DNA of 64,000 bases from Tubiluchus corallicola (taxonomy: Eukaryota; Animalia; Priapulida). Below, in pieces: positions 26,901 through 35,607 of the stretch. The stretch is taken from positions 930,001 through 994,000 of the forward strand of contig JAQGDQ010000003.1 of NCBI GenBank assembly GCA_030141605.1, given 5' to 3'. Each line of letters starts with the position of its first letter. The first letter of the stretch is position 1. A program made the position numbers and the translations under genes. The notes under the pieces are model-generated. The model saw nothing but the letters and a program-made list of their open reading frames with translations, made no database searches and was not told where the DNA came from.

Positions 26901-27960
26901 TTACCATGTGTGGAGGTATGCGTTACCCGGTATTCCTAGTTTCCGGTACAAGTGAGATCCATAAGGTAGATACGTTTGATGAAATTGGTGTGGAAATATT
27001 GGCGAATGGACGTGATCATACGGAAATCTCACTCCATCAACTCGATAGTGCAGTGTCTGTTGTGAGTTGTAACCTCCACCGCCACCGCTGCCTGTAAATG
27101 AGAAGTCAAATGTTCGTTATTTGACTAATTGACTCGTTTTACCCATTCAATAATTATTATGGATATAATTATAAAGCAACAAACATTTTATATGTTTTGA
27201 TGTTTGTCCCACAATTTTTCATAGCGTTTACTCTACCAGGATAAACTAGTGTGGGAGAAGTTACCATTTAACTAAAAAAAAACTTTCATTCATTCTCCTC
27301 TGCCATGGAACAAACTATACGTGTCCACGTGTTTTATGTACATATCCATTGTCGTTAAATAATTAACAATTGCTTTTTAGTGCTATAATTCAATTTCCGG
27401 TGTGACGACTGCTCACAAGCTATTTCTAACAATATTATTATTAAAAAGTCCCGCAATAAAAAATTGAAAAGCGCGACAGTTTAGAAATTCAATCACCTCT
27501 GCATTACCTTCAATTCTTCATACCTACTATTGTACTAAACACGTCCGTTACTTACATGGTATTCTTACTATTATGTTATTAGTTATCTTTTGTGCTCTCT
27601 CTCTCTCTCTCTCTCTCTCTCTCTCTCTCTCTCTCTCTCTCTCTCTCTCTCTCTCTCTTTCCTGTGGTTAATATGTGATTATGTTAGAAATGATTTTCTG
27701 CAATTTGAAAAAAGTGTGGTATTTCAGTACAGCAGTGTATGCTATATACATTGCTGTACTAAAATACCACACTTTTTCAAATTCGTTTATTGCGATTCTT
27801 TTTTATCAAGTTCTGTTTTGTCATGAAACAGTTAATAACAGTCATGTCATAACAATTCCGTTGGTACTACATTTAAAATATAGAGCAGCAGTAGTTGACA
27901 CTTACCGTAGGCCAAGCAAGCCAATAGAAGGCACAAGCTCAAAGTTAAAAGCCACTTCAT
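26901..27960 (-). CDS. Uncharacterised 81-aa secreted His/Tyr/Gly/Pro-rich peptide (gene A)
   Basis: Exon 1 27960-27906 (MKWLLTLSLCLLLACLAY + G, donor gtaagt) and exon 2 27091-26901 (acceptor tttacag) join in phase 1: MKWLLTLSLCLLLACLAYGSGGGGGYNSQQTLHYRVDGVRFPYDHVHSPIFPHQFHQTYLPYGSHLYRKLGIPGNAYLHTW*; AATAAA on minus at 26584-26589; tail paralogous to gene B. Confidence 0.85.
27595..27658. repeat. (CT)n microsatellite in gene A intron
   Basis: Direct reading. Confidence 0.97.
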
Positions 27961-29537
27961 TGTTCACGAGTTATCTGTCAACGGCTTCTGAAGACAAAGT
28001 GACAATTTTTCGACAGTTTCACAACCTACATAGCAGCAGATGACATCATTGTTACAGTTCAGTAAAGCTGATGAGATTGGATGACTTATCTAGGTCTTTC
28101 ATGATCATAATGCCAATTTAAATTTTATTGATGCGCGTTGATGATTCTGTCGTTCTGTCAATTTTTGTTTTTGTGCCATGGTCAGCTGTAAAAACTTTTA
28201 CGTAATTTTGATGGGTGCAATAAAGTGAAATTACTACCGTAATAATAGTTATTGCACATGTTTCTTTTTGAAACTTCCTAGGCACAATGATTTTTGGTAT
28301 CATGTACTTTACCAACACATATAAGCATATAATAATCTTACAATTGCATGGTCCTTTTCATAAATGCATTAAATCAGTGCAAGACTTATTTCAGTCAGGG
28401 TAATTAATTTACAAATTACGGTTTGTTTGGCTTTCTAGAAACACGTTTCTGCTACACCTAAGGGCTGTTTTTACAGTTACGAAAAGAAAATCTGAGTAGC
28501 TTTTACGTATAATATCGAAATAAAGATACCTCAGAATAGCAGTAAAAAACCGCTGTTCACTTTTACCATAATACCTAGCTCATAATTTTTTGTTCCATTG
28601 ATAGCATATTCTAGTCTGTCATTATAATAACGTAACTTAACATTTAGTTTTCAAGTGAAAGTGTTTTATAGAGCGTGTAGAACCGCAACGTGACAACAAT
28701 GTAAATTATAAAATCTGAGTTCATCCGAGCCGTGTCATTCCGTGACGATGCTTGTAGCGCGTCCTAAAATTTTATCATTCCGTTTAATCAATATAGGCGA
28801 CAATGATTAAAATCTACATGCTTTTGGTATTGGCCAACTGGCCTACATAAGTTGATGGAAAATATATGAAAGTGAAGGTTAGACAGTTGCTTATTGCGAT
28901 CACGTAGGTGTATCACTGGGACAGTTTTATAATACGCTCAACCTACTCATACCAATTTTGAGTAGCTGGATCGGCACTTGTCAAATTTTGAAGCCTATGA
29001 AAAGCCCGTTTTCACCAGAAAAACTGTTTCCTGAATTTACCAAAAATACTTTTCGTTATATATATATAACGAAACTATATAAATAGTTTTAATGCCAAAT
29101 TGATCGTTCGAATTTTTAGGTCGCACCTTGTTTTTCGCAACTGATTTTATTTTACAAAAAGGTTATTAGTTAACCTAAACTTTAGGTTTGTTTTTAAAGA
29201 AAATATCGGAAAGCATGCACGCATGGTGTGTTTTGGGTCACTTTTACTGGAGTTGTGGTAAAGCGACTTTGTGAGCAAGGCTGAAATTGATTGCTTTTTT
29301 ATACAGATTGACGAAATTCAGCCACATGAGACAAGTAAGAAACTGTGACTAGAAATACAGGTCTTTAGAAATGAAATTCTTAATGATACTTTATTATTGA
29401 TGAAATTAAATTTAATTGAAGCTTTTATTGCAGAATCACATAAAGAATAACAACAGTTCTGCGTAACATATGTGCTATATCACAGCAACAACAAATAATG
29501 GTCCTTGCAAACAACACTTATATACATGTATATATTA

Positions 29538-35000: not shown

Positions 35001-35607
35001 TTGTTGTTGTGGACAGTTTGCAGTGACGACATGCGTATACTAGGCTACTGCATCCTGGGATGTTATGGCATGCAATGATTTTATACCTTTCTGTCTCGTC
35101 TGCACATTAGCTGAAGAAAACGTCGCAAAAATTCAAAAGTTTTTTGCTAAAAACAGGAACAACAACGCTAATAACTACTAGCATCCCATTCGTGAAGCGA
35201 AAATTGTCAGTTACTGAGAGAAAGAGAGGGAGAGAGAGAGAGAGAGAGAGAGAGAGAGAGAGAGAGAGAGAGAGAGAGAGAGAGAGAGAGAGAGAGAGAG
35301 AGAGAGAGAGAGAGATTACATGCACTGAATGTTAAAATTAGTGAAGGACTTAAAGCGCGTTAGGCGTGAATTAAGATACAGTTTTCAAAAATTGCTGTTT
35401 ACAATTCACATTACTACGCAGTATTATTACAAATACAAAACTATCTTACTCTACAATGAAGCAGCTAGACTAATAATATCACAGCCATTAGGAACTTTAG
35501 GTACTGCATGAAAGAGACAAAAAGATATATCACAAGAAGGTGATAAAAAAGTACTTAACGGCTACACTTACCTTCAAGTGGTGCTACCTCTGGTAGCGTT
35601 TGTGCTG
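32051..35607 (-). CDS. DOMON-domain protein with Glu/Val/Pro-rich linker and His/Tyr-rich C-terminal tail (gene B); first exon unresolved
   Basis: Phase-consistent exons 35607-35572, 35110-35087, 34818-34667, 33663-33602, 33109-32936 (alternative in-phase acceptor 33124), 32477-32051. Translation includes VFFILTVRTAGWVGLGFSKNGLQM/AESDVCYGWVTSDGKGTIFDG/YNEDRATPPKIDAIQN...LAFTKPIKGDGTEEDVNL...GSIRQH, fitting the DOMON pattern GWVGLGFS..G.M..SD...GW...D.Y...P..D..Q...F.R...D...H; AATAAA on minus at 31979-31984. Confidence 0.85.
34258..34324 (-). mobile_element. tRNA-derived SINE head in gene B intron
   Basis: Minus strand tgtggttgtagtggctagcatagc...gagttcgagttccagt carries A-box-like and B-box-like motifs. 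Confidence 0.5.
35224..35314. repeat. (GA)n microsatellite
   Basis: Direct reading. Confidence 0.97.

Follow-up and report, generated by a model that had tools for sequence, protein, structure and literature searches.

A conserved 51-residue His/Tyr-rich module ends two neighbouring genes for probably secreted proteins in the priapulid Tubiluchus corallicola

In a 64,000-nucleotide stretch of the Tubiluchus corallicola genome (the window; contig JAQGDQ010000003.1, positions 930,001 to 994,000), two neighbouring minus-strand genes, here called A and B, end in versions of one 51-residue module that is rich in histidine and tyrosine. In gene A the module forms most of a small predicted precursor; in gene B it is the tail of a larger protein with a DOMON-like domain. 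The two tails are identical at 39 of 51 residues without a gap, and each is followed, directly after a Trp, by a stop codon (26901-26903 for copy A, 32051-32053 for copy B), as the original prediction had read from the sequence and as tblastn agrees. We consider it highly probable that these are two real genes that carry one selected module. The best overall explanation that we can offer, an anciently duplicated module that serves as a docking tail both of peptide A and of the DOMON-like protein B, is put forward tentatively on the strength of the sequence.

The resemblance between the tails is far beyond chance. In tblastn searches of the window each tail finds two loci only, with E values of 1e-24 and 2e-23, and the next-best matches lie at E 0.34-0.83; among 100,000 shuffles of tail A that kept its composition, none reaches more than 14 of 51 identities with tail B. 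Copy A (26904..27056) contains seven His, six Tyr, five Pro, three Phe and one Trp, and copy B (32054..32206) six His, six Tyr, seven Pro, four Phe and one Trp; both are free of Cys. Invariant between them are all six Tyr, the three shared Phe, five His, five Pro, four Gly and the terminal Trp, and a P-H-x-F-H-Q stretch is kept in both, whereas the 12 residue changes fall mostly at polar or charged positions. The module is basic, with an isoelectric point (pI) of 9.2 for the mature peptide A and of about 10 for tail B. Neither 26904-27092 nor 32054-32477 contains an array according to Tandem Repeats Finder, and the module is unique, non-repetitive sequence rather than a simple low-complexity region.

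The duplication of the tail is old, and its protein sequence is held by strong purifying selection, because silent sites are saturated while residues have been kept. In DNA the tails agree at 97 of 153 bases: of the 51 codons, 11 are unchanged, 28 carry synonymous differences and 12 encode another residue, with differences at 12, 7 and 37 of the 51 first, second and third codon positions, respectively. The Nei-Gojobori method counts 35.2 synonymous differences over 35.0 synonymous sites, a proportion (pS) of ~1.0 that is saturated, against a nonsynonymous proportion (pN) of 0.177 and a nonsynonymous distance (dN) of 0.20. Across the shared GVRFPYD motif all seven codons differ synonymously between the copies, which the codon comparison corroborates from the first reading of this DNA. 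When 56 base changes were placed randomly, 18.2 identical residues remained on average and 28 at most, and the observed 39 was reached in none of 20,000 trials. In blastn comparisons of 1.4 kb around each tail, only 74 nucleotides (nt) align, all of them inside the tail, so the introns and untranslated regions of A and B share nothing; the promoter regions of the two genes likewise have no significant similarity in common. The expectation of an old duplication with a low ratio of nonsynonymous to synonymous change is thus borne out by saturated silent sites, a dN of 0.20 and the lack of DNA similarity outside the tail. A DNA run (X1) has three listed differences from the tail exon of gene B, of which two are synonymous and one is a K-to-N change just before the module; the sole difference inside the module is synonymous.

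Gene B has six exons on the minus strand, which together give an open frame of 891 nt, or 296 codons. Most of its central structure can be read from a 704-nt contig of another run (X2), whose kind we guess to be RNA and whose species label is the same as that of the best-matching DNA run. This contig aligns to the minus strand in four pieces (34814-34666, 33662-33599, 33106-32935 and 32476-32285), and the joints between them (34666|33662, 33599|33106 and 32935|32476) are all GT..AG on that strand. Because the contig skips three introns, it represents spliced RNA; three of the five introns of gene B are confirmed in this way, by a contig ~92% identical to the window. Exon 3 (34667..34818), covered by the spliced contig, carries the first part of the DOMON-like domain with its GWVGLGFS motif, exon 4 (33602..33663) its middle, and exon 5 (32936..33109), likewise bounded by X2 joints, its last part. 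The 62-nt exon 4 was found only through these joints, after which its splice sites were checked, and had been missed when the gene was first read. Exon 6 (32051..32477), which the contig covers over 32476-32285, encodes a 90-residue linker with a pI of 6.6, the module and the stop; its reading frame is open without a stop down to 32054. ATTAAA and AATAAA motifs follow 49 and 67 nt past the stop (31979..32002, minus strand), and are listed as motifs only. An earlier model of gene B, with a donor at cg|gtatct and an acceptor at 33131, was dropped because the X2-supported exons differ from it.

The beginning of gene B is a prediction made by eye, from a short N-terminal exon that encodes hydrophobic residues and has the phase required. 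This putative exon 1 (36276..36315, minus strand) would supply an ATG at 36315 and 13 codons plus one base of a signal peptide (MQPSILLLLPIIA), and ends in phase 1 at the donor GCAG|GTATAT. It would be joined to exon 2 (35572..35607), which has 36 nt, runs from phase 1 to phase 1 and lies between the acceptor ttttacag and a GTAAGT donor. Position 35607, at which the span under study ended, is an internal exon boundary and not the start of the gene, and the predicted first exon, with its donor after 36276, falls outside that span. We prefer the separate 40-nt exon at 36315 to a start at the in-frame ATG at 35749, which would give a 50-residue hydrophobic leader and seems less likely. The loose 5' end of the X2 contig resembles exon 2 by eye. 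No X2 contig covers exon 1, exon 2 or the tail, also at 80% likeness, which is evidence neither for nor against these parts of the gene.

Between the X2 contig and the window 44 of 577 aligned letters are different, and the contig has one 6-nt in-frame deletion at 32375, so it stems from an allele, an orthologue or a paralogue and not from the exact gene of the window. The 29 listed substitutions change 27 codons, 15 of them synonymously and 12 not. Past 32285 the contig continues for 86 letters unlike the window; the 30 of these that were seen look, by eye, like an extra copy of an acidic linker unit of about 17 residues that lies slightly upstream (32285-32345). Together with the 6-nt deletion, this extra unit suggests that the length of the linker is variable and that the tail is fixed.

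The domain of gene B is best described as DOMON-like, with heme binding as a candidate property. With each exon scanned singly, the Pfam family PF03351 (DOMON) matches exon 3 over profile positions 2-40 (E 0.0019, 18.9 bits) and exon 5 over positions 63-111 (E 0.028, 15.1 bits), to be compared with a gathering cut-off of 32.7 bits. The 20 residues of exon 4 have no Pfam match by themselves; the other two exons match the profile colinearly, and exon 4 supplies the gap between them. Searches of PDB sequences with the DOMON exons returned nothing useful. Near gene B there is no further DOMON exon and neither a copper monooxygenase nor a cytochrome b561 part, and no other domain was found in its open reading frame (ORF). 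In this respect gene B differs from known DOMON-bearing redox proteins such as dopamine beta-hydroxylase (PMC4846438) and, as far as the source describes them, the CYBDOM ferric reductases (PMC10784544), with which it shares the DOMON-like fold signature GWVGLGFS ... D..CYGWV and the Pfam matches on two exons. Of the original prediction that gene B is a spliced DOMON protein, the splicing is upheld by the X2 joints, and the domain stands as DOMON-like.

Gene A is plausibly a small free secreted peptide. Its tail exon (26901..27092, minus strand) opens with a good acceptor at 27092 (ttctcatttacag), takes one base from the upstream exon and encodes a Gly-rich stretch, the module and the stop; the first AATAAA, again listed as a motif only, follows 312 nt past the stop (26584..26589). 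Over the 5 kb upstream, a scan for ATG-led hydrophobic stretches with a phase-1 donor returned eight rows; only the one at 27960 has a basic start (ATG-Lys) and a core rich in Leu together with an Ala-x-Gly end and the consensus donor GTAAGT. The predicted exon 1 (27907..27960) thus encodes a putative signal peptide of 18 codons plus one base (MKWLL...ACLAY) and ends in phase 1 at ACG|GTAAGT. Joined, the two exons give an 81-residue precursor with a mature part of about 62 residues, a pI of 9.2 and a mass of 7.1 kDa. The free secreted peptide foreseen at the outset has thereby gained a signal-peptide exon, a GTAAGT donor and a matching phase; gene A as a separate gene, with its first exon and signal peptide, is nonetheless a prediction.

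The module itself, which had not been recognised as a named domain at first reading, has no match in Pfam, in PDB sequences or among 1.84 billion representative proteins. Pfam gives no family for the tail at E up to 1, the best of three PDB sequence matches has an E of 0.28, and a profile of the two tails has no match at E up to 0.001 among 1,835,955,588 representatives. Word-index searches of a collection of 5.8 billion clusters found nothing for the tail among longer proteins and nothing for exon 2 of gene A among proteins of similar length; the ESM Atlas holds no match to the tail, and four tail motifs were not found in full-text papers. Exon 3, from the DOMON-like domain, gave three candidates among longer proteins, none at E up to 0.01. 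Because the DOMON exon too is without a relative, the collections appear to under-sample this animal lineage, and their poverty in animal sequences makes the lack of a tail homologue weak evidence of novelty. Among JGI metagenome contigs, 329 pattern matches led to a single tblastn pass (locus L001, 1160-1357, plus strand), which we reject as spurious: it lies antisense to a 681-residue ORF of bacterial type that reads by eye like a DNA ligase, and its score is owed to the search pattern itself. Pattern-seeded matches of a His/Pro/Phe-rich query, as this locus illustrates, need checking. An orphan module shared by neighbouring genes for secreted proteins and kept by selection is common in animal genomes, and the arrangement described here is of this familiar type.

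What might such a module do? Both gene products are probably secreted, to judge from their predicted signal peptides, and we lean, with considerable doubt, towards a docking function for the tail. The conserved skeleton of aromatic residues, His, Pro and Gly could form a contact surface that binds a common extracellular target, for example a polysaccharide or protein matrix, possibly via metal ions held by the His residues. Docking of this kind would bring peptide A (81 residues) and the DOMON-like protein B (296 residues) to the same partner, and the variable linker of gene B would be a mere spacer between the DOMON domain and the tail. Such a docking tail would be lineage-restricted. The ShKT domain offers a parallel for one unit used either as a free peptide or as the C-terminal tail of larger secreted proteins. 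ShKT is a disulfide-knotted, Cys-rich fold, however, to which the Cys-free module is unrelated in sequence.

Several points weigh against docking. The proposal and the model of gene A alike are drawn from sequence, and the composition of the tail would fit a metal-binding or a bioactive peptide equally well. The DOMON assignment consists of two exon matches (18.9 and 15.1 bits) that both stay below the threshold of 32.7 bits. A paralogue or another species may be the source of the X2 contig, which shows only ~92% identity with the window and ends before the tail. Structure prediction, proposed earlier as a check, has yielded low-confidence and mostly coiled models. In single-sequence AlphaFold runs, exon 2 of gene A reaches a mean predicted local distance difference test score (pLDDT) of 52.3, with a short hairpin over its residues 15-24 and a five-residue helix, and exon 6 of gene B a mean pLDDT of 57.8 with no regular element, all of it coil. 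The module thus appears to be without a confidently predicted fold of its own, which says little given two sequences, and the low confidence of the models means that a defined binding surface has no structural support.

An alternative that we regard as unlikely, and that ranks next after docking, is that the module is a metal- or heme-handling peptide, in which the invariant His residues, above all those of P-H-x-F-H-Q, would chelate Cu, Zn, Ni or Fe. The free form could then be a buffer or carrier, and the tethered form could serve the DOMON domain. Five invariant His in 51 residues with no Cys are in line with such a role, and a net basic charge and a predicted lack of fixed structure would fit a fold induced by metal. 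Copper monooxygenases and heme or ferric-reductase proteins are, moreover, among the proteins described as carrying DOMON domains (PMC4846438, PMC10784544). Yet one His of the HxH in copy A is an Arg in copy B, and conservation is no less strict at the aromatic residues, Pro and Gly than at His, something that metal binding by itself would not call for.

Less likely again is a bioactive peptide, which could be a ligand in signalling or a cationic antimicrobial rich in His; gene A would make it directly, and protein B would release it by cleavage at an R-K eight residues before the module. The layout of gene A is that of a small secreted-peptide precursor, its mature product of about 62 residues being basic (pI 9.2); a QRK lies just upstream of the gene B tail; and strong conservation of a non-repetitive peptide would fit a specific receptor or target. 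Against this, a signal peptide is predicted as for a neuropeptide or prohormone, but no dibasic site flanks the module in both genes or is common to both copies, and where copy A has an internal R-K, copy B has R-G. Both copies end in Trp and a stop, with no C-terminal Gly for amidation, and 51-62 residues without Cys would be unusual for a hormone.

The fullest version of the original prediction, in which a material is coated by the free peptide or built from it by polymerisation and a heme/redox DOMON domain, brought in by the same tag, cross-links that material through His/Tyr chemistry, strikes us as improbable. So does the closely allied and most ambitious form of docking, in which the tail would be a new Cys-free extracellular docking domain of a two-component secreted material, the free peptide forming or coating that material through its Tyr/His/Pro skeleton, possibly with metal ions, and the tethered, redox-active DOMON protein curing it. 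The Tyr/His-rich composition, the predicted secretion of both proteins and the adjacency of the genes would suit a cross-linked matrix. Secreted, His/Tyr-rich and Cys-free proteins are known from the jaw of Nereis (Nvjp-1), from squid beak (HBPs) and from the suckerins, and the module resembles them in composition and in its predicted secretion. These proteins are long, repetitive, fast-evolving and of low complexity, whereas the module is a single non-repetitive 51-residue block with 76% identity between copies whose silent sites are saturated; its unique sequence is unlike the repeats typical of structural proteins. The binding of heme by the gene B domain and of tail to tail are, besides, putative.

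A further point in favour of the cross-linked matrix comes from Hydra, in which a transcript for a 198-residue DOMON protein is listed among basal-disc-specific candidate adhesive genes (PMC5080974). Both gene B and the Hydra transcript encode short proteins in which one DOMON-type domain occurs; for gene B a signal peptide is predicted, and the Hydra transcript stands in a list from a secretory tissue. The likeness is one of architecture, to which gene B adds the 90-residue linker and the 51-residue His/Tyr tail, which have no matches. Literature searches that paired DOMON with biomaterial or histidine-rich subjects found nothing specific; in PMC4275877 the word is the name of an author.

That A and B are a single gene, with the A tail exon as an alternative 3' terminal exon reached from exon 1 or 2 of gene B, would suit the predicted status of the first exon of A and the phase 1 in which both of those B exons end, which is the phase that the A exon requires, but it is very unlikely. 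A complete signal-peptide exon (ATG, GTAAGT donor) precedes the A tail exon by 815 nt, gene B is closed 5 kb upstream of A by a stop and poly(A) signals of its own, and exons 3-5 of gene B could not be spliced to the A exon without a loss of the reading frame.

The surroundings of the two genes are eukaryotic and animal-like, with a G+C fraction of 0.31-0.40, abundant microsatellites and GT..AG introns. Between genes A and B lie a 29-base-pair minisatellite (30156-30457; 10.5 copies, 81% matches) and a (TTA)56 array (30659-30824). A multi-exon P-type cation ATPase gene on the plus strand occupies 3614-23145 (~3.6-23 kb), with the Pfam domains Cation_ATPase_N, Cation_ATPase, Hydrolase and Cation_ATPase_C each on separate exons; by eye we take it to resemble the Na+/K+-ATPase alpha subunit. 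On the minus strand, a reverse-transcriptase ORF (58342-59247; RVT_1, E 8e-26) adjoins broken ORFs, and the whole, 57771-59247, looks like a decayed retroelement of the long interspersed nuclear element (LINE) type. Two ORF pieces on the plus strand, 45730-45957 and 54588-54821, have an H-R-x-V-T-L-x-x-E-Q stretch in common; the stretch is reminiscent of PEBP-family proteins, but Pfam gives no match for these pieces at E values as high as 5. CT/GA dinucleotide arrays of great length (11640-11900, 41270-41420 and 44640-44945) can be read in every frame as long but spurious 'ORFs' made of LS/RE repeats.

Should the tail turn out to dock or to bind metal as an independent unit, this compact tag of 51 residues, free of Cys, would be of interest for biomaterials. 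In that case it would also provide a handle on the extracellular role of a stand-alone animal DOMON protein.

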